A stretch of 50,753 nucleotides of DNA from an uncultured Planctomycetales bacterium (lineage in GTDB: Bacteria > Omnitrophota > Gorgyraeia > Gygaellales > JAHJCI01): NCBI GenBank assembly GCA_964592485.1, contig CAZQEY010000010.1, positions 1 to 50,753 of the forward strand, read 5' to 3'. The translations under genes and the position numbers were made by a program. The notes under the pieces are model-generated. The model saw only the letters and a list, made by a program, of their open reading frames with translations. It ran no database searches and was not told the origin of the DNA. Each line of letters begins with the position of its first letter. Position 1 is the first letter of the stretch. This document shows positions 7,416 to 49,952 of the stretch, one piece after another.

Positions 7416-9035
7416 ATGGAAGATAAGGAAATGGAATTGATTAAATTAGCTGAAGATTATTTTGGATTTATGGCTTGCACCTATCCAGTGATGAGCCTGT
7501 CTGACGAATTCTATTTCTTCCCTCGCGCCAAGAAGGCAATTCAATATCTGGAGCGCCTAGACAGTCTGGATGAGGAAAAGATAAAACAGGATATCTCCTA
7601 CATTAAAACCCTTAAGCGAAGTTTAGAAAGATTGAATACAAAACATATGAGTCTAGAAGCGCAGATTGACCAACAGCTTCTTAAGGCGAGTATGGCCGGA
7701 TTCTTGCGAGAGTTTGAACAAATAAAAATCTGGCAAAGCGACCCTATTCTTTATCTTAAAATAACTGCCTTGGGGATAGAACAGATTGTGAACAAATTAT
7801 CGATGATAAAAACAGATATCCGGGAAGAACTCGCTTCCCGAATCAAGCAGATTCCCTCCCTTTTAAAAGAGGCAAGACAAAACTTAAAGAAAATCCCTCT
7901 TCTTTATCAAGAGACAGCAATTCAGATGGCTAAAGCAGGAACGGAGTATCTTGGAGGCTACTTCCCTTTATTTTTAAAAGCGAAATCCCTGGATACAAAA
8001 GGACTTAGAGTTTTGGCCAAAAGGGCTATTCAATCATTAGAAGATTTTAAAAAATTCTTAAAGCTAAAGCACGGCCATGATAAATTTATCAAGGATAGGA
8101 GTATCCTTGAAGATATAATCATCAACAGCTTCTCTTATAAGCGCGGGCTCTCGGAAATATTTGAAATCGCCTCGGATGAATACCAAAGAATAATAATCAA
8201 ATTAAAAAAGGTAGCCAAGCCTATCTCTCCTTCTAAAAGTTGGCAGGATATCCTATTGGGTTATAAATTAAAAGCACAAAATACACGGGAATTGCTAAAA
8301 ATCTATTCTGCGCAGATTATTAATCTAAAAGATTTTCTTGTAAAGAGTCAGCTCATCAGTATTCCAAGGATGCAGAATATCAAGGTCCTGCAGACCCCTG
8401 TTTATTTAGCGCCGATTAGGGCCTCAGCCTCCTACGCCTGCCCCTTGACCAGAAATCAGAAAGAATCAGCATTTTTTTATGTGAGCATTGATAGGGCTGG
8501 GGAGAATATCCATCAGGAATATATCTTTGTTACTGCCCATGAGACCTATCCCGGGCATCATTTACTTGATTCATTCAGGCGCAATATTAAAAGTCCCATC
8601 CGCCAACAGATTGAATCACCGCTCTTTTATGAAGGCTGGGCCTCCTATGCGGAAAGGTTAGTTGATGAATTTGGGTATCTAAATGAACCGGAGCAAAAGC
8701 TGGTTGGCTTAAGGAGACAGGCCTGGAGAGCAATAAGGGCAAAACTGGACGTGGGTATAAGGATAAATAAAATAAAAATCTCTGAGGCAGCAAGAGAATT
8801 ACGCCGACTGGGTTATGACTCATCCAGAGTCAAGGCAATGCTTAAACATTATGTGCTTACCTATGGGTATCAGTTATGTTATACTATTGGCAAATTTGAG
8901 ATTGAAAGATTAAAGAAAGAATTTGCTCCCCAAATGGGGATAAAAAATTTCCATAACTTCCTGCTTACCGGGGGGCAACTTCCCTTTGATTTAATTAAAA
9001 AGAGGATGGAGAAATTATGCCGGAAGAATTCTTAG
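7416..9035 (+). CDS. Putative zinc metallopeptidase, DUF885-like (HExxxxHH motif). The true start may be the ATG at 7431, which is SD-preceded.
   Basis: The HETYPGHH motif matches my recollection of the DUF885 HE[ST]xPGHH signature. No search was done. Confidence 0.5.
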   Translation: MEDKEMELIKLAEDYFGFMACTYPVMSLSDEFYFFPRAKKAIQYLERLDSLDEEKIKQDISYIKTLKRSLERLNTKHMSLEAQIDQQLLKASMAGFLREFEQIKIWQSDPILYLKITALGIEQIVNKLSMIKTDIREELASRIKQIPSLLKEARQNLKKIPLLYQETAIQMAKAGTEYLGGYFPLFLKAKSLDTKGLRVLAKRAIQSLEDFKKFLKLKHGHDKFIKDRSILEDIIINSFSYKRGLSEIFEIASDEYQRIIIKLKKVAKPISPSKSWQDILLGYKLKAQNTRELLKIYSAQIINLKDFLVKSQLISIPRMQNIKVLQTPVYLAPIRASASYACPLTRNQKESAFFYVSIDRAGENIHQEYIFVTAHETYPGHHLLDSFRRNIKSPIRQQIESPLFYEGWASYAERLVDEFGYLNEPEQKLVGLRRQAWRAIRAKLDVGIRINKIKISEAARELRRLGYDSSRVKAMLKHYVLTYGYQLCYTIGKFEIERLKKEFAPQMGIKNFHNFLLTGGQLPFDLIKKRMEKLCRKNS

Positions 9036-10396
9036 GATATCATTCGGAATGGAATATGGGTAGTCCCGGCGGGTGGGATTATCAAAGGATGGCGCAAGAA
9101 ATAGCCAGATTCTCCTGGGGCAAGATTAAAGAGCAATCTGGTATTGATATAGATTTAGATATTGACCATCCGATTCTTAATCCTCTGCCTGCATTCGCTG
9201 ATATGCTCCTTGAAGCACATAAGAGGGATTTCGGCAGGCAGAAGCCGTTTATTGCCCTGGTGGCTGAGGAAGAAACCCTCAAGAAGGTAGGCGAGAATAT
9301 CCACTTTATCCAATATCTAAATAACCTGCCTAATGTCTCTGCCTGTCTGGTCAGCCCGGACAAACTGGAGTTAAAAAATAAACGGGTTTTTGTGGGCAGA
9401 AACAGAATCACCTTAATCTTTCTGGATTTCAACAACAATGTGATTGTAAAATTAAAAAAGAAATACAATCTTCGCCCGCTCATTGAGGCAATAAAACAAG
9501 GAGCAGTCGTAAATCCGCGAGGAATGGAACCGGTTGGCGCAAAGGGGATATTTGAGGCAATAACCTCAGAATATAGAAACCTAATCAGCCAAACCACGCT
9601 TAAGAGAACTCCCTGGACAAGGCAGTTCTTCTCCCGCACAACCACCGGCCCGGAAGAAGAAAAAATCCCTGATTTAATTAAATGGGTAAAGGAAAACTGG
9701 GATAGAATTATCCTAAAACCAGTACATGGCTATTCCGGCAAAGGGATTATCATCGGCCATAAAGAACCTGATAGTGATAAATGCATACAACAGGCATTAA
9801 AAAGCGGCGATTATATCATCCAGCCCCTTATTCCGATGAACCTCTGGGCCGAAGAGTTTCCCTGGATTGATAAAGAAAATAAAAAGATATTCCTGAAATC
9901 CTGGCAAACTGACTTTCGCTGCTTCATTACTCCCCGAGGCCTGATTGGCTTTGTCACCCGATTTGGCGGCATACCTACCAATGTTGGCTCAGGCGGAGGA
10001 GTACAGAGCACAGCAATCTTACACTCTAAGATTTCGGTCAATGAGGCAATTGAAAGAATTAACGAAGCCATATTGAATTTGGGATTTGATTTTATTGCCC
10101 AACTCCAAGCAGAGATTGATAAAAAGTCTATCCGGATGGGAAATGTATATCTATTAGGCCCGATTATGTCCACGCTAAGGCCGAGGATAATTACCCCTAA
10201 GCATATCTTAGAGTTACAAACTTATGCCAAAAATCTCTGGGATGATGCAAGGAAATTAGAGAGGCTGTGGCAGGAGGGAAAGTTGACAAGATATGTTCAA
10301 ATAAGCAAAGAGGAAGAGGAAATTGCCCGCCTTGCTCCCTGGCAAGGAAATCCTGCCTTAATTGCCTCCGATGGTCTTTTCGGTTTCGAGAAATAA
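9017..10396 (+). CDS. ATP-grasp family ligase (nucleotide-binding ILKPVHGYSGKGIIIG mid-protein; possibly the circularly-permuted type)
   Basis: ATP-grasp K-P...G-S-G-K-G motif. Overlaps the upstream gene by 19 nt, implying an operon. Confidence 0.55.
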   Translation: MPEEFLGYHSEWNMGSPGGWDYQRMAQEIARFSWGKIKEQSGIDIDLDIDHPILNPLPAFADMLLEAHKRDFGRQKPFIALVAEEETLKKVGENIHFIQYLNNLPNVSACLVSPDKLELKNKRVFVGRNRITLIFLDFNNNVIVKLKKKYNLRPLIEAIKQGAVVNPRGMEPVGAKGIFEAITSEYRNLISQTTLKRTPWTRQFFSRTTTGPEEEKIPDLIKWVKENWDRIILKPVHGYSGKGIIIGHKEPDSDKCIQQALKSGDYIIQPLIPMNLWAEEFPWIDKENKKIFLKSWQTDFRCFITPRGLIGFVTRFGGIPTNVGSGGGVQSTAILHSKISVNEAIERINEAILNLGFDFIAQLQAEIDKKSIRMGNVYLLGPIMSTLRPRIITPKHILELQTYAKNLWDDARKLERLWQEGKLTRYVQISKEEEEIARLAPWQGNPALIASDGLFGFEK

Positions 10397-10436: not shown

Positions 10437-11210
10437 ATGATTAGGGTAAAAAAGAACTGGTGGAAAGACTTTTTCAATAATATTTATTTAATTACTGATG
10501 CCCGCAGCGTAGGCGATGTTCATCTTACCTGCCGCGAGGTTGATTTATTAGAGAAGGTTTTGCGCTTGGATAAAACTGACCGCATCCTTGATTTATTTGG
10601 CGGGCAGGGGAGGCACTCAATAGAGCTGGCAAAACGCGGCTATCGAGATTTAACCGTGCTTGATTATTCTGATTATTTGATTAATTTAGGAAGGTGCTCA
10701 GCTAAAAAAGAGAATCTCAAGATAAATTTTTATCAGGGCGATGCACGTTCTACTAAACTTGCAAATAGTAATTATTCTGTTATTATCATAATGGCTAATT
10801 CCTTCGGTTATTTCACCAATGAAAGAGAAAATGAAAAAGTATTAAGAGAAGCACACCGGTTACTTAAAACCGGAGGCAGGTTGCTTCTGGATTTGATAAA
10901 TTCTGAACATGTTAAAAATACCCTCAAGCCCACTTCCTGGCATAGAATTGACAATGATATTGATGTGTTTCGAAAAAGAGAAATTAAAAATAACCTGGTT
11001 AAAACCAAGGAGACTGTAATCTCTCAGCGGAAGGGACTGATTAGGGATGGTAGTTATTGCGAGCGCATTTACACCAAAGCAAGAATCTGCCGATTACTTA
11101 AGAAGGTGGGTTTTAAAAATATTAACATAAAAAATAATCTTTCCCTCCATAAAGAAAATCAAGATTATGGTTTGCTTACCTCAAGGATGATTGTTACCGC
11201 AAATAAATGA
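10437..11210 (+). CDS. Class I SAM-dependent methyltransferase
   Basis: Motif I LDLFGGQGRHS; post-I D; motif LLKTGGRLLLD. Confidence 0.8.
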   Translation: MIRVKKNWWKDFFNNIYLITDARSVGDVHLTCREVDLLEKVLRLDKTDRILDLFGGQGRHSIELAKRGYRDLTVLDYSDYLINLGRCSAKKENLKINFYQGDARSTKLANSNYSVIIIMANSFGYFTNERENEKVLREAHRLLKTGGRLLLDLINSEHVKNTLKPTSWHRIDNDIDVFRKREIKNNLVKTKETVISQRKGLIRDGSYCERIYTKARICRLLKKVGFKNINIKNNLSLHKENQDYGLLTSRMIVTANK

Positions 11211-11287
11211 CCCCCCTATCCTTAATAAAGAAAACTAAAATTATGGTTTACTTACCTCAAGGATGATTGTTACCGCGAACAAATAAA
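11161..11287. repeat. Tandem duplication (~48 bp unit, 75 bp period) of the 3' end of the methyltransferase gene, including the stop codon
   Basis: AAGATTATGGTTTGCTTACCTCAAGGATGATTGTTACCGCAAATAAATGA and AAAATTATGGTTTACTTACCTCAAGGATGATTGTTACCGCGAACAAATAA. Confidence 0.9.
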
Positions 11288-11314
11288 AACTCCTATCTTA
11301 ACCTGAGATTTGTC

Positions 11315-12340
11315 TTAAGGACAGCTGATTTGAGCTAACTCTTCAACTGCTTTTTTAATCCGCAACATTCGTTCAGGGGAGGAAGGATGGGTAGAAAGGT
11401 AATTTCTAATCATTGACTGGGGAATCTCAATGGCAAACCTTTCCTGAAAATTTGCGCATACACAGGGGTCAAAACCAGCAAAATAGGTGAATCTCATGCC
11501 AAAATAATCTGCTTCCCTTTCCAGGTCTCGAGAATAACGTGCTTTAAATAAATCAGCGGTACGCATCACTAAATTACCGGTTCCTGGCGCAGCCTCATCG
11601 GCAATCAAGCCCAAGGGTATCCCGAATAAAAGTGATAAAAACGAGCTCAGCTGCGCCTTACTTACGTGGCCACGCACAAAATGCGCCAACTCATGACCCA
11701 GAACCGCAGCAATCTCATCATCTGATTTAGCAAAATTCAACAGGCCATAGGTAACATAAATCGCATTGCTACCAGCTGCCGCGTTAACCTCCTGGATATC
11801 AACCGTTATAATCGGCACATTTACGGGGATTGAACCGACAGTTAGAACAATCTCATCAGACACGCCTCGCCTTTGAATATGTAGTCTGATTGAATCTCCG
11901 ATATTTAATCTGCGGCGATATTGATTAAAATCACTGGTAGAAAAAAACCTATTGCCATCAATAGAAACCAAAATATCTCCTGGTACTATCCCCGCTGCCT
12001 TTGCCGGCGAACCATCAACCACAGCAATAACCGCCAGGCCCTTATCTACCTGAAGGTTATATAACTGCTTAAGATATTTATCCACTTCTGATACATATAT
12101 ACCCAAATAGGACTGAGGCTCTTTTGTGATTTTAACTTCTTCTTGGGGGATATGGGCAATCAGCTGATAGCCGATGTTATTAACCTTGGTTAATTGATTA
12201 AGCCGAAACCCCAAGGATTTGACCTTCAACTCCTCCTGCGCCCTTAAGATTTCCCCCTCTTCAACCGAGGGTCCGGTAATCGTAGCACAGCCGCTTAGGA
12301 AAAATAGGGCTAGAGTCAATAAAATTACATACCGCATCAT
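11315..12340 (-). CDS. Lipoprotein with a PDZ domain and an M48-family Zn-metallopeptidase domain
   Basis: Lipobox LSGC; PDZ GDILVSIDG; HELAHFVRGH (HExxH). The start is placed at MMRYVIL; the ORF-track start is a TTG. Confidence 0.75.
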   Translation of the reverse strand: MMRYVILLTLALFFLSGCATITGPSVEEGEILRAQEELKVKSLGFRLNQLTKVNNIGYQLIAHIPQEEVKITKEPQSYLGIYVSEVDKYLKQLYNLQVDKGLAVIAVVDGSPAKAAGIVPGDILVSIDGNRFFSTSDFNQYRRRLNIGDSIRLHIQRRGVSDEIVLTVGSIPVNVPIITVDIQEVNAAAGSNAIYVTYGLLNFAKSDDEIAAVLGHELAHFVRGHVSKAQLSSFLSLLFGIPLGLIADEAAPGTGNLVMRTADLFKARYSRDLEREADYFGMRFTYFAGFDPCVCANFQERFAIEIPQSMIRNYLSTHPSSPERMLRIKKAVEELAQISCP

Positions 12341-12583: not shown

Positions 12584-13144
12584 TTATTTGCCCCCTATTA
12601 GCGCTAAGGTCTCGGCACGCGTCTTCTCGTTCTCTTTAAAAATCCCGCGCACAGCTGAGGTTACTGTCATAATGCCAGGTTTTTTTATCCCCCTGAAAGA
12701 CATACACAAATGTTCTGCCTCGATTACTACCATAACCCCCCGTGGTTTAAGTTTTTTCATAATAATCTCGGCAACCTGAGTGGTGAGCCTCTCTTGAACC
12801 TGAGGTCTCCTAGATAGCGTGTCAACAACGCGTGCTAATTTGCTCAAGCCAGTAACCCTTCCTCCCTTAGGAACATAAGCAATATGGGCACGGCCGACAA
12901 AAGGGATAAGATGATGCTCACAGACCGAGTAGAGTGGTATTCCTCTAAGCAGAATTATCTCATCATGTTTCTGCTCAAGGATTACGTCGAGTTCCTTTTC
13001 CGGATCCCGACTGACTCCCCCGAATATCTCTTCATACATTTCAGCAACTCGCCGCGGCGTGTCCCTCAAGTCTCTCTTCGTGGGGTCCTCGCCAATTGCA
13101 ACCAAGATATCTCTTATTGCCTTTTCTATTTTTTTCTTATCCAT
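12584..13144 (-). CDS. folE: GTP cyclohydrolase I
   Basis: [21 protein letters not shown] signature; 186 aa; AAAGGAG SD. Confidence 0.95.
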
Positions 13145-13213
13145 CCCCCCTCGCTCCTTTCAGTCGCTCAGGAGAAACCAGAGAACAAAATACAGATTTT
13201 CTGGTTTCTTTAA

Positions 13214-14656
13214 TTATTTACCTATACAAAATTCACTGAAGATTCTATCCAACAGTCCATCGGAAAAACGCCCACCCAAAATCTCATCTAAAAAACCAAT
13301 TGCCTCTTGGAGGTCCTGGGCGATGAACTCAAAAGGTAAATTCGCATTAGCTGATTTTCTCGCCCGCATAATTGATTTCTTTACCTTTCTAAGTTGCTGA
13401 ATATGCCTTAGATTAGTCACCCATACCGGAGTGTCTGATTTAATTTTACCACTAAATACAAATTGGGCAATTGCTTCTTCCAGCAGGTCGATATTTTTTT
13501 GTTTTTTTGCCGAGACCTGAACAACCTGCGGGAAGCGTTGAGCAATTTTATCGTACTCGATATTCTGCTTCAGGTCTATCTTGTTAATTAAAGCGATAGT
13601 CGGTTTGGAGTTAATCTTGCGCATTAAGACCCTATCTTCATACGATAAATCCCTGCTGCCGTCAAAAACAAGTAAGACCAAATTCGCCTCTCGGATATAG
13701 CGCTGGCTGCGGGAAACTGCCTTTTGTTCGATTAAATCGCCTGGTTCGATTATTCCGGCAGTATCAACAATCCTTATCGGAATGCCCCTAATATCTAAAA
13801 TGTCCTCAATTGTATCGCGGGTGGTCCCCGCAATCGGAGTAACGATTGAACGTTCACATTTTAATAATGCATTTAAAAGCGAGGATTTTCCGACATTGGG
13901 CCTGCCGCAAATAACCACCTTTATGCCTTCACGAAAAACCCTGCCCCTTTTTGAATTCTCCAAGAGAAATTCTAATTGATGATTTATTCGGTCTATACTT
14001 ATAGTGATATTCTTGATATCCACTGCTTCCAAGCCCTCATCGGGAAAATCAATATTTGCCTCCAAGATGGTAAGTAGTTCTAATAATTTATCTCTTAACT
14101 GATTCAACCTTTTTGAGAAATCCCCCTTCAATTGCTCAACGCTTGCCCTTAAGGCAGTATCCGTTTTTGCCCTAATAATATCTAATACTGCCTCAGCCTG
14201 GGTAAGGTCAATCCGACCATTTAAAAAGGCGCGCTTAGTAAATTCTCCCGGATTACTCAAGCGGGCGCCTAAACTTAAAACTAATTCCAGAGTTTTTCTT
14301 AAAGGGATAATCCCCCCGTGACAGTTAATCTCCACAATATCTTCGCGTGTATAACTTTTAGGCCTACGCATCACTGTCAGTATAACCTCATCAACAATAT
14401 CTGATTTTTGTCCGCCTTCATTTAATTTCGGCGAACAACCCGCCGAAGTCTTGACGAAGGCGGGTTGATTTTTCACAATCCATCCGTAATGAGTCGTATA
14501 GGTTTTAAAATTGGAAGGCTTTTGACCATCCTTGGAAACAAAGATCTTATCCGCAATAGTTATTGCCTTACTCCCGCTAATTCTCACAATACCAATGCCT
14601 GACTCACCAACCGGAGTGGAAATTGCCGCAATCGTATCATTTAGATTAAAATTCAT
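13214..14656 (-). CDS. mnmE: tRNA modification GTPase MnmE (TrmE) carrying a ~20 aa in-frame insertion
   Basis: GRPNVGKSSLLNAL, DTAG and C-terminal CIGK. The insertion PAFVKTSAGCSPKLNEGGQKS is encoded by a palindromic element. Confidence 0.95.
   Translation of the reverse strand: MNFNLNDTIAAISTPVGESGIGIVRISGSKAITIADKIFVSKDGQKPSNFKTYTTHYGWIVKNQPAFVKTSAGCSPKLNEGGQKSDIVDEVILTVMRRPKSYTREDIVEINCHGGIIPLRKTLELVLSLGARLSNPGEFTKRAFLNGRIDLTQAEAVLDIIRAKTDTALRASVEQLKGDFSKRLNQLRDKLLELLTILEANIDFPDEGLEAVDIKNITISIDRINHQLEFLLENSKRGRVFREGIKVVICGRPNVGKSSLLNALLKCERSIVTPIAGTTRDTIEDILDIRGIPIRIVDTAGIIEPGDLIEQKAVSRSQRYIREANLVLLVFDGSRDLSYEDRVLMRKINSKPTIALINKIDLKQNIEYDKIAQRFPQVVQVSAKKQKNIDLLEEAIAQFVFSGKIKSDTPVWVTNLRHIQQLRKVKKSIMRARKSANANLPFEFIAQDLQEAIGFLDEILGGRFSDGLLDRIFSEFCIGK
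14412..14464. repeat. GC-rich nested palindromic element inserted in-frame in mnmE
   Basis: Outer arms CCGCCTTC/GAAGGCGG. Inner hairpin TTCGGCG-aacaacc-CGCCGAA. No counterpart in E. coli MnmE. Confidence 0.7.
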
Positions 14657-25227: not shown

Positions 25228-26346
25228 TTAACAAATACGAGGCAAGGGTTCAGAGGTCAACATATCAAGGATGCGGTCTGTACCCAATGTGGTTTTAAGC
25301 AACACCATACCCCGAGGCTTAGAGACTATCCTGCCTATAATTCGGGCAAATCTTCCGAGCTTCTGCCGCTTAAGATATTTTAAGACACTGTCCGCCGAAT
25401 CAGATTTAACTACCAGAACTGCCTTTCCTTCATTAGCAATGTATAAAGGGTCAATCCCCAATAATTCACTCGCTGCCTTTATCCGACTGGCAATGGGAAT
25501 CTTTGCCTCGTGGACAACAATGCCCAAATTAGCGGCCCGGGCAATTTCATTCAAGGTTGTCGCCAATCCTCCGCGGGTAGGGTCGCGCATAAATTTTATC
25601 CCGCACCTTCTTGCCTTACTGCTATTTTTCCCTCGAGAAGGTGCGGGATTTATTGCCTCATCTTTTAATAAGGGAATCAACAGCTTATCCAGGCTAGCGC
25701 AATCGCTCTTAATATTTAGACCAAAATCCATTCCCTTGCGCTGGGTTAATATGCTTAATCCGTGTTCAGCAATCCTTCCTGTGATGATAATCTTGTCGCC
25801 GACTTCGATATTTTTTATTTTAAAATCCCTGATAACCCTGCCTATACCTGTAGTATTGATAAACAACTTATCGCAGGCTCCCCTCTCTACCACCTTTATA
25901 TCGCCGGTAATAACCTTAACCTGAGAACTCTTAGAGGCAGAAGAGATGGCATTAACCACGCGCTCTAATAATGAATAATCCAGCCCCTCCTCAATAATTA
26001 AGGCCAGGGACAGATAAAGGGGCAAGGCGCCAGAAACTACCAGATCATTTATCGTGCCAGAAACAGCAAGTTTACCAATATCCCCACCGAGGAAAAATAG
26101 GGGATGGACTACAAAGGAATCGGTAGTAAATGCTATTGCCTTATCCCAAACCTTTGGATATCTATAGAGGACTCCGCCACGTGGAAGGGTGAGAGAATTA
26201 TCTTTAAAGTCAATAACTGCGCTATCAGTTAATTTATTTAGCAGCGAATTACTGAATTTGGGCAGGATTAGATCTCTGATTAAATTATGCGTTAACTGAC
26301 CACCGCTTCCATGAGCTAATAGAATCTTCGAATTTTGTTTTATCAT
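25228..26346 (-). CDS. hypE: Hydrogenase maturation protein HypE (carbamoyl dehydratase), with a 17-codon in-frame insertion
   Basis: N-terminal LAHGSGGQL and C-terminal LPRIC. 372 aa versus ~336 aa. The insertion SAPSRGKNSSKARRCG sits where E. coli HypE has no counterpart. Confidence 0.9.
   Translation of the reverse strand: MIKQNSKILLAHGSGGQLTHNLIRDLILPKFSNSLLNKLTDSAVIDFKDNSLTLPRGGVLYRYPKVWDKAIAFTTDSFVVHPLFFLGGDIGKLAVSGTINDLVVSGALPLYLSLALIIEEGLDYSLLERVVNAISSASKSSQVKVITGDIKVVERGACDKLFINTTGIGRVIRDFKIKNIEVGDKIIITGRIAEHGLSILTQRKGMDFGLNIKSDCASLDKLLIPLLKDEAINPAPSRGKNSSKARRCGIKFMRDPTRGGLATTLNEIARAANLGIVVHEAKIPIASRIKAASELLGIDPLYIANEGKAVLVVKSDSADSVLKYLKRQKLGRFARIIGRIVSKPRGMVLLKTTLGTDRILDMLTSEPLPRIC
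25599..25649. repeat. 51 bp palindromic element (ATCCCGCACCTTCT...AGAAGGTGCGGGAT) inserted in-frame within hypE
   Basis: 14 bp perfect arms with a 23 nt loop. Length is divisible by 3. Same core as the elements at 32420, 35554 and 49829. Confidence 0.8.
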
Positions 26347-31044: not shown

Positions 31045-32161
31045 TACAGGCTCCTTCGCTAGAAACCATGCAGGGACCATAAGGATTTGCAGGGGAACAA
31101 ATCTTGCGAAATAAGGAGCACTCGGGAGGCTGAATTATTCCCTTCAGCACTTCCTTGCAGCGGCATTTCTCAAGTTTTTTGTTTGGTATTTCATATTTTC
31201 CCGTCTTTACATTTCTTGCTATAGCGGGATTCCGCTTGAAACGGGAAATATTAGGAAACACTATTCTTTTGGTCTCGAAACTTGAGAATGCATCCTTTAA
31301 CTCCAATCCACTTTGAGGAATTTCACCGAGTCCCCGCCAGGTAGCATTATCAGTCTTAAAAACCTTGAATATTTCTGCCTTTGCCTTTAGATTTCCCTCC
31401 TTTTTTACCACCCGTATATACTGATTTTCCACGCACGGTTTGTTCTGAATAACTTGACGAAGCAGGAAATAAATCCCCTCCAAGATATCCAAGGGTTCAA
31501 ATCCAGCCACACAGCAGGCAATCTTGTATTTTTTAGGAATAAACTCATATGCCTGGCTGCCGATGATTGTTGAGACATGTCCGGGACAGAGAAATCCGTC
31601 AATCTTAACTTGTCGGTCAAAAACCAATGCCTCCATTGCTGGAGGGATAAGTTTTAAGGCAGAAAAAAAAGAGAGATTGTTTAATCTTTCTTTTTTAGCT
31701 GCCTGCAGCGTAAGAGCTAAGGTCGAGGCAGTAGTCTCAAAGCCTACCGCCAGAAAGATTATCAACTTTTTTGGATTTTTTCTTGCTATACTCAGACTAT
31801 CCCAAGCAGAATAAACAACACGGACATCGCTACCCTCGGCCCTTTTCCTCTCAAGACTCGTGTTTGTCCCTGGTACCCGTAACATATCTCCAAAACTTAA
31901 GATGATTATATCCTTAAACTCGCTTAATTGGATTGCTTTATCAATATAATCCTGGTCAGACACACAAACCGGACACCCGGGCCCGGCAATCAAGTGTAGA
32001 TTCTTGGGAATTAACCTGTCTAAGCCAAAGCGGTGAAAACACTGAGTATGGGTACCGCAAACCTCCATCAGACGAATTGTGGTCTTCGGTATAATCTCAA
32101 ATATTTTCTGAGAAATCCGCTTGATAAGCTCTTTGTTGCGGAACTCATCAATAAATTTCAT
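31022..32161 (-). CDS. hypD: Hydrogenase maturation protein HypD
   Basis: MKFIDEFR N-terminus, MEVCGTHT, GPGCPVCV. Start placed at the ATG; the ORF track uses a TTG. Confidence 0.9.
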   Translation of the reverse strand: MKFIDEFRNKELIKRISQKIFEIIPKTTIRLMEVCGTHTQCFHRFGLDRLIPKNLHLIAGPGCPVCVSDQDYIDKAIQLSEFKDIIILSFGDMLRVPGTNTSLERKRAEGSDVRVVYSAWDSLSIARKNPKKLIIFLAVGFETTASTLALTLQAAKKERLNNLSFFSALKLIPPAMEALVFDRQVKIDGFLCPGHVSTIIGSQAYEFIPKKYKIACCVAGFEPLDILEGIYFLLRQVIQNKPCVENQYIRVVKKEGNLKAKAEIFKVFKTDNATWRGLGEIPQSGLELKDAFSSFETKRIVFPNISRFKRNPAIARNVKTGKYEIPNKKLEKCRCKEVLKGIIQPPECSLFRKICSPANPYGPCMVSSEGACNAYYKYK

Positions 32162-32381: not shown

Positions 32382-32522
32382 TTCAATTCGCCCGCCAAAG
32401 TTCTGTGGCGGGCGAATTGAACCCCGCACCTTTTTCCTACGAAGCAACTCTGCACAGTAGAAAGGTGCGGGGTTAATTCCGACTTACAACTTATGTCCTT
32501 TGAATAAACTCAGGACATAAGT
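32382..32522 (-). promoter_or_regulatory. Three consecutive strong hairpins in the hypC leader: a 15 bp TTCAATTCGCCCGCC hairpin, a 14 bp AACCCCGCACCTTT hairpin and an 11 bp ACTTATGTCCT hairpin
   Basis: Perfect inverted repeats at 32382-32421, 32420-32474 and 32489-32522. Confidence 0.7.
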
Positions 32523-32603
32523 TGTGTCGTCATTAAAATTCTATCATATCTGTCTTAAATTATCCAGAAAAGATTGCTTTTGCTTTGCTTGGCTTGAATC
32601 TGG

Positions 32604-33794
32604 TTAATGGGTCCAAGAGGCAACCGCTGCCTGCCCTAGACTGATGCTTATATCCGAGCAAGGCAGCATCTTATGAGTTAAAATATGAAATCCCGCTTTT
32701 TCTAATAAACCCAAACTTAACTTAAGTAGAATCTTATTCTGGAATACTCCGCCGGTTAAAATAACAGTATTAATCCGGGTGCCGCCTCTTATTCTCAGGC
32801 AGGTCTTTCTAATCATATCGGCAACAGTCAGATGAAAACAAGCAGCAATCTCTTCCTTACTGCAGTCATTTTTCAAATCAGCAATAATCTCCCTAAGGGT
32901 CAAAACCGGATCGATGACAAAAACCTGCCCAATCTTTTTAATCGCAAACTGATAACTTCTCGGCTGAGATTTATAACCAGAAGCGAGCCTTTCTAAATTT
33001 ATCGCTGCCTCAGCCTCGAATCCAACCCGGTAAATCTCTAAGACCAGGCAAGCAATAGCATCAAAGAGCCGACCAATGCTTGAGGCGGGAGGTGAATTAA
33101 AATTCTGCCTCCACATCTTTTCTAGGATAATCCAATTTTTTTTATTTATCCGTTTGAGAAAATCCAAATCTAAATCTAAAAAATTATTTCCAAAAGCCAG
33201 ACAAAGCCAAGCCGAAGCTACTCTCCAAGGTTCATAAATCGCTTTCTTGCCTCCTAAGAGAGGGATATATCTTAAGTGGGCTGCCCGTTTGAAATCCCGA
33301 TAATCAGCAACTAAGAATTCTGCGCCCCAGAGTGTTGAATCACTTCCAAAACCAGTGCCATCAAAGGCAACACCAATAACCCTTTGATTGCTAAGTTTAT
33401 TCTCAAGCATACAAGAAGCAATGTGGGCATGGTGATGTTGAACAGGAATAAGTCTTGGCCCATCAGAAATTTTTGCTCTGCATTTTGCTAAAGCACTATT
33501 TCTAGCGGAATTTATATTTTTTACTTTTTGCAAGTCGAGGATATATTTCGTCGAGAAATATCCCGGATGTTTGTCATAGGCAATAATCCTGGGTGACAGA
33601 CCAAAGCGTTGGGGAATTAAACTTATTCTCCTTTGAAATTTTTTAAAATTATCCGGTATCTCTAAATCGTTGATTACTTCGTTGATAAAAGCAGATCTAC
33701 GGTAAGCAAAGCAAAGGCTATTCTTTATATCTGCTCCCACTGCCAGTATTGGCTTCTTAATTTTAAAGGGTAAATCTATTTCTGACCAAGACAC
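32604..33794 (-). CDS. hypF: HypF-like carbamoyltransferase, Kae1/YgjD-like C-terminal domain only. No acylphosphatase, Zn-finger or YrdC domains in this ORF.
   Basis: PILAVGADIKNSLCF and QHHHAHIASC match HypF C-domain motifs. GTG start. 396 aa versus ~750 aa for full HypF. Confidence 0.65.
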   Translation of the reverse strand: MSWSEIDLPFKIKKPILAVGADIKNSLCFAYRRSAFINEVINDLEIPDNFKKFQRRISLIPQRFGLSPRIIAYDKHPGYFSTKYILDLQKVKNINSARNSALAKCRAKISDGPRLIPVQHHHAHIASCMLENKLSNQRVIGVAFDGTGFGSDSTLWGAEFLVADYRDFKRAAHLRYIPLLGGKKAIYEPWRVASAWLCLAFGNNFLDLDLDFLKRINKKNWIILEKMWRQNFNSPPASSIGRLFDAIACLVLEIYRVGFEAEAAINLERLASGYKSQPRSYQFAIKKIGQVFVIDPVLTLREIIADLKNDCSKEEIAACFHLTVADMIRKTCLRIRGGTRINTVILTGGVFQNKILLKLSLGLLEKAGFHILTHKMLPCSDISISLGQAAVASWTH

Positions 33795-35537: not shown

Positions 35538-35553
35538 AAGACAACAGACAATT

Positions 35554-35632
35554 CGCCCCGCACCTTTTCTTTATTCTTCTGGTTTTTATTTACAAATTTA
35601 ACTATATTTGAACATCAAGAAGGTGCGGGGCG
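35554..35632. repeat. Palindromic element copy (CGCCCCGCACCTT...AAGGTGCGGGGCG, ~53 nt loop) between acyP and the phosphoesterase gene
   Basis: 13 bp arms with compensatory flanking CG. Starts 2 nt after the acyP stop. Confidence 0.75.
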
Positions 35633-35633
35633 A

Positions 35634-37574: not shown

Positions 37575-38116
37575 CTTGCCAGCTTTATTCCCTTCTCTAT
37601 TGCTCGTTTATTAATTTCAATCAAGCCCTTTTTATCTGCCGGAGCAATATCCTCTATTGCAGAAAAAACAATTTGTTTATTAAGAATCTTCCGTTTTGCG
37701 ATATAGCCACCCAGAGCAACCATATTCGCAACCCTTATATTGCCCAACTCTACAGCAGCTTCAGTAAAAGGCAAAAATACTTGTTTGTTGCTCGACGCCC
37801 TATGTCCTGTCTTATCAGTATTTACCAAAGAACTATTAACCAATAACAAGCCTTTTTTGTTTATTCTCTGATTGAATTTAGAAAAAGACAAATCATTCAT
37901 AATTATTATTGTATCTGCTTTATCAATATAAGGAGAGGGAATATCGCCGGACGAAAGTTTTACCATACAATAAGCAGCCCCGCCCCTTACCTCCGCACCA
38001 TAGGTGGGAAACCAGGTTACATTCATCCCCTTGCCTAAAGCAGCTGCGGCAATCACCTTGCCTAGTAGCATTATCCCCTGACCGCCACTGCCCGCAACTA
38101 TAATCTGCTCAAGCAT
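37571..38116 (-). CDS. 2-oxoacid:ferredoxin oxidoreductase gamma subunit
   Basis: VAGSGGQG motif. ATGA overlap with gltX. Confidence 0.85.
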   Translation of the reverse strand: MLEQIIVAGSGGQGIMLLGKVIAAAALGKGMNVTWFPTYGAEVRGGAAYCMVKLSSGDIPSPYIDKADTIIIMNDLSFSKFNQRINKKGLLLVNSSLVNTDKTGHRASSNKQVFLPFTEAAVELGNIRVANMVALGGYIAKRKILNKQIVFSAIEDIAPADKKGLIEINKRAIEKGIKLAR

Positions 38117-42674: not shown

Positions 42675-42790
42675 GAAAACTTTGTAACCACAGATAAACA
42701 CAGGTAAACACTGTTAAATTTTCATAATAAAAATACGAAAGTCTTTTTCTTTCTTCTGTGTTCATCTGTGGTTTATGCTTTCTTATGCTT
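42675..42790. mobile_element. MITE-like element copy 1 with terminal inverted repeats (AACCACAGATAAACAC...GTGTTCATCTGTGGTT), between xseA and xseB
   Basis: Ends are conserved with copy 2 (46289-46405); the internal sequence differs. An extra partial end CCTCTGTGGTT lies at 42827-42842. Confidence 0.7.
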
Positions 42791-42847: not shown

Positions 42848-44152
42848 CTAAGAATCTATCTGAGTCACTTCAGATTGAAAACTGCCTTTGGCTAATTTTG
42901 TATTTACTCGATCACCCTTTTTAAGGGAACTGGCCTTTAGAATAATCTTGCCATCTATGCTCGTAGTTAAACTGAAGCCGCGAGATAAAATCGCCAGCGG
43001 ATTAAGTGCCTGATATTTTCCGATGACCGCAGCCAGCCTCTGCTCAGTTAAATGAATAAGATGCTGAATTACTAGAGACGCGGAGTGCGTCAAGCTATCG
43101 GTATCCTGCTGAAATTCCTCAATCTTCTGTAATGGATGCTTAAACGCGGGGCTGGTAGAAAGCAGATTGAATCTTTGTTTTAAATCATTGCTTTTTTCTC
43201 TGATTAAGTTAACCAGCAATAACTGGCTCTGCTCCAATAGCTTTAGTATCTCGTTCTTCTTGTTCACAAATAATTTGGCTGCCGCTGTGGGAGTCTCCAC
43301 ACGCAAATCAGCAACTAAATCAGCGATGGTAGTATCGACCTCATGACCTACCGCAGATATAACTGGAATCTTAGAATTAAATATTGCCCGGGCAACAATC
43401 TCTTCATTAAACGCCCAGAGGTCTTCAAGACTGCCGCCCCCTCGGCCAATAATCAAAACATCAACCTGAGAATATTCGTTAAATTCGGCGATGCCTAAAG
43501 CAATATCATATTTCGCCTGTTCACCTTGCACAACCGTTGGCCGCACAACAATGCGTAAGAATTTCACCTCCCTATTTAGGATTTTAAGAATATCCTCGAC
43601 TGCCGCACCGGTTGCTGAGGTAATGATGCCTACGGAAAATGGCATCAGGGGTATGGGTTTTTTACGGGCCACATCGAATAATCCCTCTTTGAATAATTTA
43701 TCTTTGAGTTGCTCAAATGCCAATTGCAAAGAACCAATTCCCTTAGGCTCAATCTTCTCAATGACTACCTGATACTGCCCGCGTTTTCCGTATACAGTAA
43801 TGCGTCCAAAACAAATTACCTTTAACCCATCTTCTAATTTAAATTTTAAAGTCTGATTCACATTCTTAAATAAACAAGCATTAATTATCGCATTTTCATC
43901 TTTGAGGGAAAAATACATATGGCCGGACAAATGATGGGTAAAGTTGGAAATCTCCGCCTCCAGCCAAATTGAAGAAAGGTTATTCTCCAGGATTAATTTT
44001 ATATCCTGGGTTAACTCACTTACCGTATAGATATGTTGAGTCGAATATTTATCTCGCACCTTCCCTTGTAACGGGGCCGCCCGGGAAGATAGAGAAATGC
44101 GGGATTTATCATCTAATTGGGATTGTTTATTTAAATTGATTCGCGTAGGCAT
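42848..44152 (-). CDS. xseA: Exodeoxyribonuclease VII large subunit
   Basis: OB-fold N-terminus IYTVSELT...; length and architecture typical. Confidence 0.9.
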   Translation of the reverse strand: MPTRINLNKQSQLDDKSRISLSSRAAPLQGKVRDKYSTQHIYTVSELTQDIKLILENNLSSIWLEAEISNFTHHLSGHMYFSLKDENAIINACLFKNVNQTLKFKLEDGLKVICFGRITVYGKRGQYQVVIEKIEPKGIGSLQLAFEQLKDKLFKEGLFDVARKKPIPLMPFSVGIITSATGAAVEDILKILNREVKFLRIVVRPTVVQGEQAKYDIALGIAEFNEYSQVDVLIIGRGGGSLEDLWAFNEEIVARAIFNSKIPVISAVGHEVDTTIADLVADLRVETPTAAAKLFVNKKNEILKLLEQSQLLLVNLIREKSNDLKQRFNLLSTSPAFKHPLQKIEEFQQDTDSLTHSASLVIQHLIHLTEQRLAAVIGKYQALNPLAILSRGFSLTTSIDGKIILKASSLKKGDRVNTKLAKGSFQSEVTQIDS

Positions 44153-44478: not shown

Positions 44479-46390
44479 CTTGCCCTGCTCCTTTCTTCTG
44501 GCCTTCATTAGGTTTTTCCCCTATCGGCTCTTCAGGCTTAATCGGGGTTACTTGCTCCGCCTCTTCAACCTCCACAGAGACTTCTGGTTTTTTATCCATC
44601 ACAATCAAGACCACTGAATACGGCTCCAAAATTAAGGTCTCCTTATAGGTAGTAACATCCTTAATCTCTTTTTCTTCTCGCGGCATAAATGCGCAATCCA
44701 ATCGGCAGGATTTATCTACGATATATTTTTTATAGATATAATCATCCTTAAGATTGGTCAAATTTAAATTTATATTCTGAGACTGGGTAATCAAGGATTT
44801 CGCCATTTTATTTAAAGTAATTGCCTCTTCAATCTTTGCCTTTATCCTTTTGTCTAAGCGCAAGGTTTTTAGAGGAATCTCTGAATTTTTAATCCTCTCC
44901 CATTTATCGGAATGTATTAAATTTACCAATATTCTTGCCAATCTGGGGTGCAATTCAGCCAGATGTCGAGAAAGATAATCCCTGGCAAGCCTGGGGTCAA
45001 TATATTTGAACAAAAATAAGGCGAGGCCTGTTTCTGTCTTGGTGGCAATTATGCCGACAAATTCATCATCCAGGCGCGAGGCAATAAACATCTCGCTACC
45101 CAGCATATTGAGCATACTAATTACATTAAACATCGATTTTGCTCCGCCGGTGTATTTGACATGCTCCGACTCAAACCAGAATAAGCCGACATTTCGATTT
45201 ACCCCTTGTTTATTATTTTTAAAATCCTCCAGGCAAAAGAATATTTGATAATCAATGCCTGACTTTAGCATATTCCTTATCCGGCTGGGGATAAAGCTGG
45301 CAGCGACATAAGACTCCCAGCCTCGCTTGGGTTCAAAGTTTAACCCCGTATCGTAGTTCCATTCACTAATAATTAGAGGTATAGTTGAGTCTAGGCCAAA
45401 ATACGAAAGCCATTCGCGAATAAGTTTTGGAACTATATTTTTATAACAGGTAATTTCACTTTCGGCCAATGGGTCGCTGGTATAGGCATGCCAGCTAATA
45501 AAGTCCAGAGGAAGTCCCTGTTGAGAACAGAAGCGAATAAATTCGTAGATAAGGCTTTCTTCGGGATAGAAAACGGTATTGCCTTCCAAATTCTGGAACC
45601 ACCATGTTACTGCCGGGCCGCCGATGCGAATGTCACGGTTAGTCTCTTTTTCTAATTCCTTTACGCTCTGGGCTACTGCTTGATAAATATTGAGATATTC
45701 TTTTTTCTGCCCTAAAAAGAAATCGTCCGAATCCGGAGCGTTCCATATCTCGTACCAGATATCATAACCCTTCTCGCAACTCAAATAGCGGATAATATGC
45801 TTAACCAGCTCCTTGAACGCGCCGATATCCCAGGGGGAACTTTTCTTATCCAAGACCTTACCTAAGCCCGGAGGCATACCATACAAATTCAAAAGAATGA
45901 TTCCTCCAGCCGAATTTATATTTTTAATCACTGTCGAATAGTTTTCCAGAAATTCGGCCTGCATCTCTTTATCCTTAGCCAGTTGGATAAACTCCCAAAG
46001 GTCAAACTGTAAATGAAAAATACCTCCGCTCAAATCAAGACGTTCGTTGAGTTGGGCTAATACTTCGGGCGCAGCCAAGTTCTGCGGCCAGGTCGGCTGA
46101 TAATGAAACCCCCGGCCGCTTAAATCTATGCCTGGCTTTCTAAGAAGATTCGGCGTTGGTTTTGTCTTACCGGTTATATCCAAGTTGAAATCGATATCGT
46201 TACCTTGAGCGAAAGTAAAATCGCCTATAAAATTCAAAATGCAAAATGCAAATATAAGAATAAAAAAACAAAATCCAGATATTTTTAAAAAATCTTTGCA
46301 ACCACAGATAAACACGGGTAAACACTGCTTAGCATAGAGAATGCTATAAATACCGACCGCTTTTCTCCTCTTGTGTTTATCTGTGTTCAT
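44465..46390 (-). CDS. Secreted TIM-barrel glycoside-hydrolase-like protein with an acidic low-complexity C-terminal tail. The N-terminal ~35 codons, including the ATG, are supplied by MITE-like copy 2.
   Basis: IWYEIWNAPD resembles the GH5/GH39 NEP motif region. Signal peptide ILIFAFCILNFIGDFTFAQ. Start uncertain. Confidence 0.55.
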   Translation of the reverse strand: MNTDKHKRRKAVGIYSILYAKQCLPVFICGCKDFLKISGFCFFILIFAFCILNFIGDFTFAQGNDIDFNLDITGKTKPTPNLLRKPGIDLSGRGFHYQPTWPQNLAAPEVLAQLNERLDLSGGIFHLQFDLWEFIQLAKDKEMQAEFLENYSTVIKNINSAGGIILLNLYGMPPGLGKVLDKKSSPWDIGAFKELVKHIIRYLSCEKGYDIWYEIWNAPDSDDFFLGQKKEYLNIYQAVAQSVKELEKETNRDIRIGGPAVTWWFQNLEGNTVFYPEESLIYEFIRFCSQQGLPLDFISWHAYTSDPLAESEITCYKNIVPKLIREWLSYFGLDSTIPLIISEWNYDTGLNFEPKRGWESYVAASFIPSRIRNMLKSGIDYQIFFCLEDFKNNKQGVNRNVGLFWFESEHVKYTGGAKSMFNVISMLNMLGSEMFIASRLDDEFVGIIATKTETGLALFLFKYIDPRLARDYLSRHLAELHPRLARILVNLIHSDKWERIKNSEIPLKTLRLDKRIKAKIEEAITLNKMAKSLITQSQNINLNLTNLKDDYIYKKYIVDKSCRLDCAFMPREEKEIKDVTTYKETLILEPYSVVLIVMDKKPEVSVEVEEAEQVTPIKPEEPIGEKPNEGQKKGAGQDEAE

Positions 46391-46405
46391 CTGTGGTTTA
46401 TGCTT
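46289..46405. mobile_element. MITE-like element copy 2 (same termini as copy 1), overlapping the 5' end of the GH-like ORF
   Basis: AACCACAGATAAACACGGGTAAACACTG...GTGTTTATCTGTGTTCATCTGTGGTTTATGC. Confidence 0.7.
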
Positions 46406-46429: not shown

Positions 46430-47203
46430 TTAAATCTTCCTCTGAAGTCTCGTAATCGACCTTGCCTTTCCCGTATTCTCATCAATATCCAAAACTACGC
46501 CTTGTAACTGCGAGTCTTCGGAAGCCACCTCAAAACGATGGTCAACCTGCGTGATAAACCTTGTCAAAACATCTTCGATATTGCGACCGATAACTGAACG
46601 CTGAGGCCCAGTCATGCCCACATCAGTGATGTAGGCGGTGCCTTGGGGAAGAATCTTTTCATCAGCAGTCTGGATATGCGTATGCGTACCTAACACTGCA
46701 CTGACTAATCCGTCTAAATACCAACCCATTGCTACCTTTTCAGAGGTTGCCTCGGCATGAAAATCAACAATGATGACTTTACATCCGGCTTTATCGATTT
46801 CTTCCTTAACCACGCGAAAGGGGCATTCCCTTGCTTCCATAAAAACACGGCCTAAGATATTGATTAGAACAAGGGGGCTTTTAGTCTTGGTAATAAATTG
46901 CCCCGAACCTCTGCCTGGACTGGCCAAGGGAAAATTTGCGGGCCTAAGAAGCCTTGGCTCTTCATTAATTGTTGAGAGTATCTCTCTTTTTTTAAAAATA
47001 TGGTCTCCCGAGGTAAATGCATCTATTCCGAAACTTGCGAGTTCATAAGCTACCGGGGGAGTAACACCTGAACCTCCGGCAGCATTCTCTACGTTAGCAA
47101 TAACAAAATCAAGCGCAAATTCCTTTTTTAAGTCTGGCAGCAGAACTTTGACTGTTTCTCTGCCTGGCCTGCCGACGATATCACCTATAAATAATATATT
47201 CAT
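46430..47203 (-). CDS. ymdB: YmdB-like metallophosphoesterase
   Basis: MNILFIGDIVGRPGR N-terminus; 257 aa. Confidence 0.85.
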   Translation of the reverse strand: MNILFIGDIVGRPGRETVKVLLPDLKKEFALDFVIANVENAAGGSGVTPPVAYELASFGIDAFTSGDHIFKKREILSTINEEPRLLRPANFPLASPGRGSGQFITKTKSPLVLINILGRVFMEARECPFRVVKEEIDKAGCKVIIVDFHAEATSEKVAMGWYLDGLVSAVLGTHTHIQTADEKILPQGTAYITDVGMTGPQRSVIGRNIEDVLTRFITQVDHRFEVASEDSQLQGVVLDIDENTGKARSITRLQRKI

Positions 47204-49057: not shown

Positions 49058-49285
49058 GCTTTAGCCTCAGCTAAAGTCAGGTATTGTTTCGGGCTGAACT
49101 TCGATTGAGACTAAACTTTGATCAAAGGCTTTGCTCAAACTCCAGCCTCAGCTAAAGCGCTGCTTTAAGCTTAAACTTCAGTCAAGACTAAACTTTGATC
49201 AAAGGCTTTGCTCAAACTTTAACCTCAGCTAAAGTAAAATATTGTTTTAGGCTGAACTTTGGTTGAGGCTAAACTTTGATCAAAG
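49058..49285. repeat. About 3 tandem copies of a 68-83 bp unit, each containing palindromes CTTTAGCCTCAGCTAAAG and CTTTGATCAAAG, in the long rny leader
   Basis: CTTTGATCAAAG at 49116, 49193 and 49274. CCTCAGCTAAAG occurs three times. Confidence 0.8.
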
Positions 49286-49287
49286 AA

Positions 49288-49854
49288 TTAAGCGGAGAGG
49301 ACTTTATCTACTGGCATATCAATTTGCTCGACGGGTAAGTGCGGCAAGATTTGGAAGTCAAAGGCCAAACCAATGGAATGCGTACGTTGGGGTAACCCTT
49401 TTAGGAAGCGGTCATAATACCCTTTACCTCGCCCCAGGCGATTCCCTTTCTTATCAAACGCAAGGGCGGGCACAATCACCAAATCCAATTCATCAACAGA
49501 CAAATCAATCTTAGTTTGGGGTTCCAATGTTTGGTATGGCCCTTTATCTAATTTGCTATCTTCCATCAAAATACATGGCTTCAAGGCCTTCTGTTTAGTA
49601 TCGCATACAGGAACAAAAATCTCTTTACTAAGGCCCCTTGCCTTATTAATCATGCTTTCTGTGTTTACCTCTCCGTCAAAAGCTAGATAAAACATTATCC
49701 TCTCTGCTTTAATAAATTCCTCCTGTTTTAAAAGTTTCTCTTCAATCAGCTTGCTTTTTTGCTTACGCTCCTGCTCCGTTTGTTGTTTTAATCTATTTAT
49801 CAATATATTACGTAATTGCCTCTTTGTCAACCCCGCACCTTTTTGAAAATTCAT
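49288..49854 (-). CDS. 5-formyltetrahydrofolate cyclo-ligase
   Basis: GRGKGYYDR motif; 188 aa. Confidence 0.85.
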   Translation of the reverse strand: MNFQKGAGLTKRQLRNILINRLKQQTEQERKQKSKLIEEKLLKQEEFIKAERIMFYLAFDGEVNTESMINKARGLSKEIFVPVCDTKQKALKPCILMEDSKLDKGPYQTLEPQTKIDLSVDELDLVIVPALAFDKKGNRLGRGKGYYDRFLKGLPQRTHSIGLAFDFQILPHLPVEQIDMPVDKVLSA

Positions 49855-49952
49855 TTTTTAATTATTGTCTTGAACCCGCCCTCTTAAAAGGTACGGAATG
49901 AATATTACCCAAAATCCACCAATAATATTTTAATACGTAAAAGGTGCGGGGT
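49829..49952. repeat. Palindromic element copy (AACCCCGCACCTTTT...AAAAGGTGCGGGGT, ~95 nt loop) spanning the 5-FCL start codon
   Basis: Left arm lies within codons 5-9 (KGAGL). Right arm is 15 nt after the upstream gene stop. Confidence 0.75.

Follow-up and report, generated by a model that had tools for sequence, protein, structure and literature searches.

Rickettsia is the best-known case of palindromic repeats that have colonised genes in frame, alongside a few others such as Coxiella. The Rickettsia palindromic elements (RPEs; reviews include PMC2229807 and PMC10969869) are about 100–150 bp long and are not known from outside Rickettsia, nor are they known to have clear terminal inverted repeats (TIRs) or target-site duplications (TSDs). 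In this study, a palindrome inside the gene hypE on a 50,753-bp stretch of DNA (positions 1–50,753 of contig CAZQEY010000010.1, assembly GCA_964592485.1; called the window below) was followed up. Like RPEs, it belongs to a group of short, non-coding, dispersed palindromes that sit in frame in genes, including those of conserved enzymes, are predicted to be translated as surface segments and decay in place. The elements differ from RPEs in length (26 to about 120 bp; 50–52 bp in hypE), in having 12–14-bp TIRs and short TSDs, and in host: the hypE copy is in an Omnitrophota metagenome-assembled genome (MAG), and the family extends over Omnitrophota, Patescibacteria and Planctomycetota-labelled MAGs. 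Their sequence we take to be unrelated to that of RPEs, from which host and length set them apart. The original prediction, made from the sequence of the window, had likened the palindrome to RPEs; on the best reading, this stands for its behaviour, namely in-frame colonisation of coding sequence and residence in tolerated loops, and because host, size and TIR/TSD architecture differ, the family that spans these three groups is not RPE.

[quoted passage not shown] Occasional in-frame residence in genes is reported for QMITEs in the source cited (PMC5896051). The present family is smaller (down to 26 bp), has a highly variable loop and has arms common to several phyla rather than to one genus, and no cognate insertion sequence was found for it in the window and fetched loci. 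Of the features by which MITEs are recognised, the hypE family showed TIRs, a TSD, small, non-coding and multi-copy dispersed elements, and presence/absence polymorphism, whereas the autonomous insertion sequence expected to share the inverted repeats was not found in the window or fetched loci. We consider it very likely (probability about 0.85) that the hypE palindrome is a copy of a dispersed, non-coding, MITE-like hairpin family with a variable loop, residing in frame in a tolerant surface loop. This reading is carried by family membership, the target duplication, presence/absence polymorphism, the loop location and the in-frame copies in other core genes.

The window is a housekeeping region of ~40% GC, and its nearest protein relatives are in Candidatus Omnitrophota MAGs. 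The hypE open reading frame (ORF; 25228–26346, minus strand) is intact, encodes 372 residues and hosts two copies of the element. Its product matched TIGR02124 at 400 bits, above the curated cut-off of 251.6, and its best PDB sequence matches, 2z1t and 2z1e, were full-length. The protein has the PurM-like two-domain fold, keeps the invariant HypE residues and ends in ...EPLPRIC with the PRIC motif. The arms of the palindrome, ATCCCGCACCTTCT and AGAAGGTGCGGGAT (25598–25611 and 25636–25649), are 14 nt long, 100% complementary and separated by a 24-nt loop, so that the perfect 14-bp arms originally reported in hypE were confirmed; the palindrome is 52 bp long (25598–25649), not 51 bp, and encodes the peptide INPAPSRGKNSSKARRCGIKF as described. 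Six perfect inverted repeats of 14 nt or longer (within 120 nt) were counted in the window, where Markov-1 simulations predict 0.035. As RNA, the segment has a folding energy of −25.5 kcal/mol (z = −3.9).

DNA of eight orthologous hypE genes was fetched for comparison of the junctions (P-numbers denote HypE homologues). At this position, referred to as site 2, the empty orthologues P0005 and P0003 encode GCAATAAAATTTATG with the DNA GCA ATA AAA TTT ATG, whereas the window reads GCA ATA AA/T CCC GCA CCT TCT, 24 nt, and AGA AGG TGC GGG A/TA AAA TTT ATG (slashes mark the element ends); that is, GCAATAAAATTT when empty and GCAATAAA/T...A/TAAAATTT when filled. Comparison of these junctions together with the inverted repeat delimits an intact hairpin element at 25599–25648, consisting of TCCCGCACCTTCT, the 24-nt loop and AGAAGGTGCGGGA and encoding NPAPSRGKNSSKARRCG(I). 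The left copy of the TSD lies at 25595–25598 (TTTA on the plus strand, TAAA in gene orientation) and the right copy, TTTA on the plus strand, at 25649–25652. Relative to the empty-site orthologues, the gain is 54 bp, the 50-bp element plus the 4-bp duplication, or 18 codons rather than the 17 residues first proposed; a 17-residue gap seen at this site in the HMMER alignment of the window HypE to 2z1t results from a 1-residue offset nearby. Since 54 bp is a multiple of three, the insertion is in frame and the ORF intact, as had been claimed.

The excess length of the protein (372 versus ~336 residues) had been ascribed to the palindrome. Site 2 contributes 18 residues, and the remainder comes from a second insert of ~19 residues that had gone unnoticed, TTCTCTCACCCTT...AAAGGTTTGGGA (residues about 49–68; 26144–26197, minus strand). 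This second insert, at site 1, belongs to the same family but has decayed, as recognised from intact or semi-intact hairpins at the orthologous site, and its folding has been lost in the window (z = +0.3). An identical 372-residue protein was encoded by the independent Logan assembly L150, and the hypE insert is therefore not an assembly artefact.

Presence and absence of the inserts were compared among the 120 closest HypE homologues. The site-2 insert was missing in 111 of them and the site-1 insert in at least 106. All carriers were within the closest ~30 sequences (Omnitrophota relatives), where a neighbour-joining tree, which has short internal branches and is not robust, intermingled them with sequences whose site is empty; unrelated taxa sharing the 17-residue segment without palindromic DNA were not encountered. 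At site 2, the long form was intact in P0001 and P0002, and P0007 had a decayed, long-form-like insert, while a short 26-bp form, ATCCCGCCCCTG-CGCR-CAGGGGCGGGAT, was intact in P0004, P0006 and P0025 and had decayed arms in P0008. Both forms occupy the identical nucleotide position. At site 1, the family hairpin was intact in P0008 and its arms semi-intact in P0003; the site was empty in P0006 and most homologues, and was occupied by different subfamilies in different sister lineages. The two forms at one position and the varied subfamilies at the other indicate that these two HypE loops are permissive and were repeatedly colonised; alternatively, copies were exchanged by conversion among family members.

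Insert polymorphism between sister genomes was found in hypE, hypD and a DUF3857 gene. In the last case, the DUF3857/transglutaminase lipoprotein gene of the P0002 genome (L001, 563–3118) carries a family hairpin (SRTF...KGAG, 711–759) in the signal-peptide region, and the window orthologue has none. The same lipoprotein has a second N-terminal insertion relative to the window orthologue, a 22-residue basic segment directly upstream of the lipobox. Nested insertions were seen in L003, with one hairpin inside the loop of another and one nested copy having a 3–5-bp repeat. An 'arm' at L003 11055 was rejected because it represents the PLPRIC codons of the HypE C-terminus. Also in L003, ~600 bp of AT-rich non-coding DNA opening with nested family hairpins (11068–11674) stands in place of an AbpE-like gene, which follows hypE in the window, L002, L004, L005 and L006 and is missing in L003. 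Two lineage-specific in-frame palindromic insertions of other sequence types were observed in L004 (GCA_043819655.1), one of +25 residues in the PAC2 gene (8919–9995) and one of +8 residues, GCGCCTGCC-tctgc-GGCAGGCG, in a radical-SAM/LAM (lysine-aminomutase-like) gene (13087–14286).

Within the window, the arm core CCCGCACCTT had 11 matches at no more than one mismatch, against 1.75 expected, and these formed four further intact inverted pairs with loops of 17 to 95 nt. The intact hairpins folded with z from −3.8 to −6.7 relative to shuffled sequence. Scanning the GTDB representative genomes for CCCGCACCTT-N8-38-AAGGTGCGGG gave at least 115 loci. With the same arms recurring in the window and in public genomes, accompanied by TSDs, the element family suspected in this lineage was substantiated. 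The TIR consensus across copies is (A)YCCCGCACCTTT / AAAGGTGCGGGR(T), with arms YCCCGCACCTT/AAGGTGCGGGR.

Flank statistics were computed on 123 unique hairpins among the matches listed from public genomes, with 500 permutations. The sequence around the element follows the order T-N-N-A-Y, element, R-T-N-N-A. Directly outside Y...R, 28 of the 123 had a perfect 4-bp direct repeat, compared with 3.0 expected and a permutation maximum of 8, and the inner dinucleotide was directly repeated in 47 (10.5 expected). The NN of TNNA varies (TC, TT, AA, GA, CG, CA and others), which identifies the repeat as a duplication and not a fixed motif. Among the matches listed, the perfect repeat was found in Omnitrophota (9/30), Patescibacteria (9/31), Planctomycetota-labelled MAGs (4/12) and unclassified MAGs (5/9), and not in the actinobacterial or other hits nor in viral contigs (6 hits, no target duplication). 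The NCBI labels of some MAGs are possibly imprecise; the Patescibacteria hits span many independent studies and classes. The short 26-bp form is a dispersed element in its own right, found at 19 loci in the metagenome scan with perfect TAAA, TTTA or TTAA duplications at 9 of them.

Not counted as family members were terminator-like orthologous hairpins that have 8-nt loops and no duplications, found in Arthrobacter, other Actinobacteria and some Proteobacteria. Those in several species of Arthrobacter and Pseudarthrobacter (L013, L019, L023, L070, L085, L088, L099 and L101) are 28–29-bp hairpins, GGCGGCCCCGCACCTT-N8/9-AAGGTGCGGGGCCGCC, whose similarity suggests one orthologous locus; they look like a conserved terminator sharing the 10-nt core by chance. 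In addition, an 'uncultured Gammaproteobacteria' MAG (CAZXUX01) had at least six loci with the same 10-nt arms (L024, L025, L075, L087, L089 and L115), none with a perfect 4-bp target duplication; four of these (L024, L025, L089 and L115) share the loop TTTCAGCCGACAAAGTCAA or its complement, apparently inside a larger repeat, and may represent a different element reusing the same stem.

Several observations bear on how such insertions are tolerated. The arms, as read from the sequence, are free of stop codons in all six frames, giving PAP, PHL or RTF on one and KVR, RCG or GAG on the other. An AlphaFold2 model of the window HypE, built from a 120-sequence alignment, had a mean predicted local distance difference test score (pLDDT) of 87.9 and a predicted template-modelling (TM) score of 0.88. 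In this model, whose HypE fold is otherwise confident, extended internal coil of low confidence was confined to the two insert sites, with 10-residue block means of 47–73 over residues 31–70 and 60–69 over 231–250 and values below 50 at residues 51–53, 55–61 and 241–245; the C-terminal ~12 residues were the one other low-confidence stretch, and the remainder exceeded 90. The model core matched the solved HypE structures 2z1u/2z1t with a target-normalised TM score of 0.92 in Foldseek. Site 2 lies in the loop between helix 220–228 and strand 250–254, in agreement with the suggestion that the insertion would map to a surface loop.

Further in-frame copies of the family were confirmed with Pfam in a radical-SAM enzyme, in MoaA, where the insert separates the radical-SAM domain from the C-terminal one, in IspE, where it lies between the GHMP N and C domains, and in a low-molecular-weight phosphatase, whose domain it splits in two. 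The short form was in frame in RsfS, KsgA/RsmA, Obg and a further HypE, and probably also in a fifth protein, at L133. Across the family, element length plus TSD fell into the three multiples-of-three classes as 28/33/25. Because there is no bias to multiples of three, in-frame copies are survivors of selection and not a built-in property, and the possibility that the elements are designed for ORF compatibility was rejected.

The window contains four to five intact family copies and three or more decayed ones. Intact copy B (32413–32481; core 32421–32473; fold z = −4.5), identified by its arm match, lies between hypF(C) and hypC. Its orthologue with shared flanks in L003 (2012–2059) has kept the arms while the loop has diverged, and copy B had no BLAST match among PLSDB plasmids. 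Two more perfect hairpins with 14–19-nt arms flank it in the same spacer (32382–32421 and 32486–32525), the latter being conserved in L003. Intact copy C (35553–35633; arm pair 35555–35631; fold z = −6.7) is intergenic, 16 bp upstream of the start of a metallophosphoesterase gene. Copy D (49830–49952; fold z = −3.8), between a MTHFR-C-like gene and the 5-FTHF cyclo-ligase gene, is an intact composite with outer arms, a third degenerate arm (49886–49899) and TCAA/TCAA flanks. A decayed copy at the 5′ end of xseA (44051–44110, minus strand), where it lies in the N-terminal extension, has an interior homologous to the site-1 copy in hypE of P0002. A segment in hypD (31198–31247, minus strand) that adds 16 residues, SRFKRNPAIARNVKTG, with arms TTCCCGT...ACGGGAA and AATAT/AATAT flanks, has no counterpart in the L003 and L004 orthologues and is probably another decayed copy. 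Regions 37979–38050 and 46902–46942 were rejected as chance-like. A window-specific insertion of 19 residues (NSARNSALAKCRAKISDGP) relative to L003 and L004 in the C-terminal hypF homologue (33447–33521) was not claimed as a family copy, its similarity being weak.

The possibility that the hypE copy is an intrinsic terminator was rejected, as it lies in the middle of an ORF, its stem is AT-rich on the loop side, and there is no T-run after it. The ends of IS5 (GGAAGGTGCG...) resemble the arms; this is presumably a coincidence, since they run the opposite way with respect to the element tips. Features that we associate with IS1380/piggyBac-like elements, CC ends and a 4–5-bp duplication, are taken as a lead only. 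An Rfam scan of the whole window at gathering thresholds returned two tRNAs only, a permissive scan over copies B and C gave chance-level matches only, and nothing relevant to the arm sequences or to MITEs in these phyla was found in the searchable full-text literature. The hairpins apparently constitute an undescribed MITE-like family that colonises ORFs, consistent with the original suggestion that the family might be undescribed, as no Rfam family or paper in that literature matches it.

For hypE, the element would have entered a TAAA site in a HypE loop with duplication of the target, giving the gain of 54 bp. The insertion would be tolerated because its length is a multiple of three, its arms are stop-free and the surface loop is variable and disordered. 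Mobilisation may have occurred in trans by a transposase cutting with a short stagger at T-NN-A targets. The insert-carrying HypE would keep its function, and insertions elsewhere or out of frame were presumably purged by selection, which would explain why different subfamilies have repeatedly colonised the same two HypE loops in sister lineages.

Some points weigh against a MITE-like family of this kind. Neither the window nor the ~1 Mb of fetched loci contained an autonomous element that shares these ends and carries a transposase gene, and no transposase, RAYT or integrase domain was detected among the ~41 window ORFs. Arm pairs 0.4–4 kb apart in the fetched loci were rejected as autonomous partners, since all combine separate hairpins and the solo arms are mostly due to chance. 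For a classical DDE transposase working by two-end synapsis, the smallest dispersed form, of 26 bp, is awkwardly short. No more than roughly one quarter to one third of the copies retain a perfect duplication, and a TNNA duplication of 4 bp is indistinguishable from one of 2 bp in which A...T is part of the inverted repeat. Translation of the insert and activity of this HypE are predictions. The conservation of the arms is a further point: the 15-nt arm segments of P0001 and P0002 are identical (30/30), compared with 16/24 for the loop, 80.6% for the gene and 68% for third positions. Between orthologous copies, the arms have thus changed less than the loop or synonymous sites, a hint of something more than neutral junk. 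The reason for this could be selection acting on the hairpin, quasi-palindrome correction, conversion between copies or independent insertion at a hotspot.

The first of these possible reasons leads to an explanation in which the hairpin has been exapted, either as an mRNA or DNA hairpin acting in stability, processing or translation or as a selected peptide loop, and is kept by selection whatever its mobile origin. Besides the P0001/P0002 comparison, it is favoured by the short form being nearly identical in P0006 and P0025, whose genes are 69% identical (48% at third positions), by the retention of arms despite loop drift in the intergenic orthologue in L003, and by the folding of intact copies, which is far better than that of shuffles. 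Nevertheless, the arms have decayed in P0007 and P0008 and in the hypE site-1, xseA and hypD copies while the genes remained intact, which argues against a general requirement for the hairpin, and copies are found in unrelated genes and intergenic positions without a common context. Quasi-palindrome template-switch correction and gene conversion are established mutational mechanisms; either could maintain arm symmetry without selection, and identical family members entering the same hotspot independently would mimic conservation. Exaptation is thus regarded as rather unlikely.

Decidedly unlikely, in our judgement, is that the family was moved as a single-stranded hairpin by an HUH/Y1 enzyme in the style of REP/RAYT or IS200/IS605 instead of by a DDE enzyme acting on double-stranded inverted repeats. 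Repetitive extragenic palindromic (REP) sequences and REPINs do resemble the family in size (short forms of 20–40 bp, a REP size range into which the present elements of 26–50 bp fall), in being GC-rich imperfect palindromes, in high copy number and in a location mostly at gene ends. The hairpin is moreover the conserved feature and the loop the variable one, and a transposase with matching inverted repeats is lacking in the window and fetched loci, both of which would suit such an enzyme. However, REPs are extragenic by definition, and neither REP nor IS200/IS605 insertions are known to make flanking direct repeats, whereas variable flanking direct repeats are strongly enriched here, at T-NN-A, and many copies are intragenic. 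A conserved GTAG or CGTC tag is described for REPs in the source cited (PMC3733652); no such fixed tag precedes the present palindromes, positions −5 to −1 being T-N-N-A-Y, and neither a Y1 transposase gene nor a RAYT gene was found in the window. Given the absent tag, the many intragenic copies and the enriched duplications, assignment of the family to REP/REPIN was rejected.

A lineage-specific extension of the HypE loop by ordinary indels, with a coincidental palindrome, might be considered because length varies here among HypE proteins, that of T. kodakarensis being longer than the D. vulgaris protein, but it is effectively refuted by the rarity of perfect 14-nt inverted repeats in simulated windows, the recurrence of identical arms at intergenic sites, the target duplication bounding the insert and the many homologues lacking it.

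Beyond the MITE-like reading, it is possible, if doubtful, that the elements form an ultra-small class of transposable hairpins between REPs and MITEs. Such a class would comprise 26-bp units with 2–4-bp T-NN-A duplications and ~12-bp arms common to at least three phyla whose members are for the most part ultra-small or live in groundwater (Omnitrophota, Patescibacteria and Planctomycetota-labelled MAGs). It would be moved by a novel enzyme or mechanism, its arms would be held by selection or concerted evolution, and it would remodel loops of the core housekeeping proteins HypD/E, RsfS, KsgA, Obg, MoaA and IspE.

Other features were observed in the window. A second, unrelated palindromic family, AACCACAGATAAACAC(R)GGTAAACACTG ... 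CTGTGTTCATCTGTGGTTTATGCTTT, has intergenic copies with 18–26-nt arms at 42686–42773 and 46300–46398. Between the rny and 5-FTHF cyclo-ligase genes (49105–49285), TTGAGACTAAACTTTGATCAAAGGCTTTGCTCAA occurs three times at ~80-bp spacing, each unit being internally palindromic. The hypF homologue (32604–33794; 769–1899 in L003 and 1453–2580 in L004) encodes 375–396 residues matching the Kae1-like C-terminal HypF domains alone; acylphosphatase, zinc-finger and YrdC parts were not found in the 32604–33794 ORF. Unrelated genes lie between hypD and hypE, encoding a DUF3857/transglutaminase lipoprotein, an M20 peptidase and a PAC2-family protein, and the window holds no hydrogenase structural genes.

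These results extend in-frame gene colonisation by palindromic repeats, operating at scale, to Omnitrophota, Patescibacteria and relatives, which are known almost solely from metagenomes. They account for odd insertions of 10–20 residues in conserved enzymes of these lineages, which have consequences for annotation and alignment as well as for phylogenomic markers and structure prediction. The pattern YCCCGCACCTT...AAGGTGCGGGR provides a simple tag with which the elements can be masked or traced, and the elements in turn flag permissive loops in proteins such as HypE. The 26-bp minimal unit, the identical arms in several phyla and the repeated colonisation of the same protein loops are the notable properties of the family; the first two raise the question of which enzyme moves the elements and whether they are exchanged between co-occurring ultra-small bacteria.

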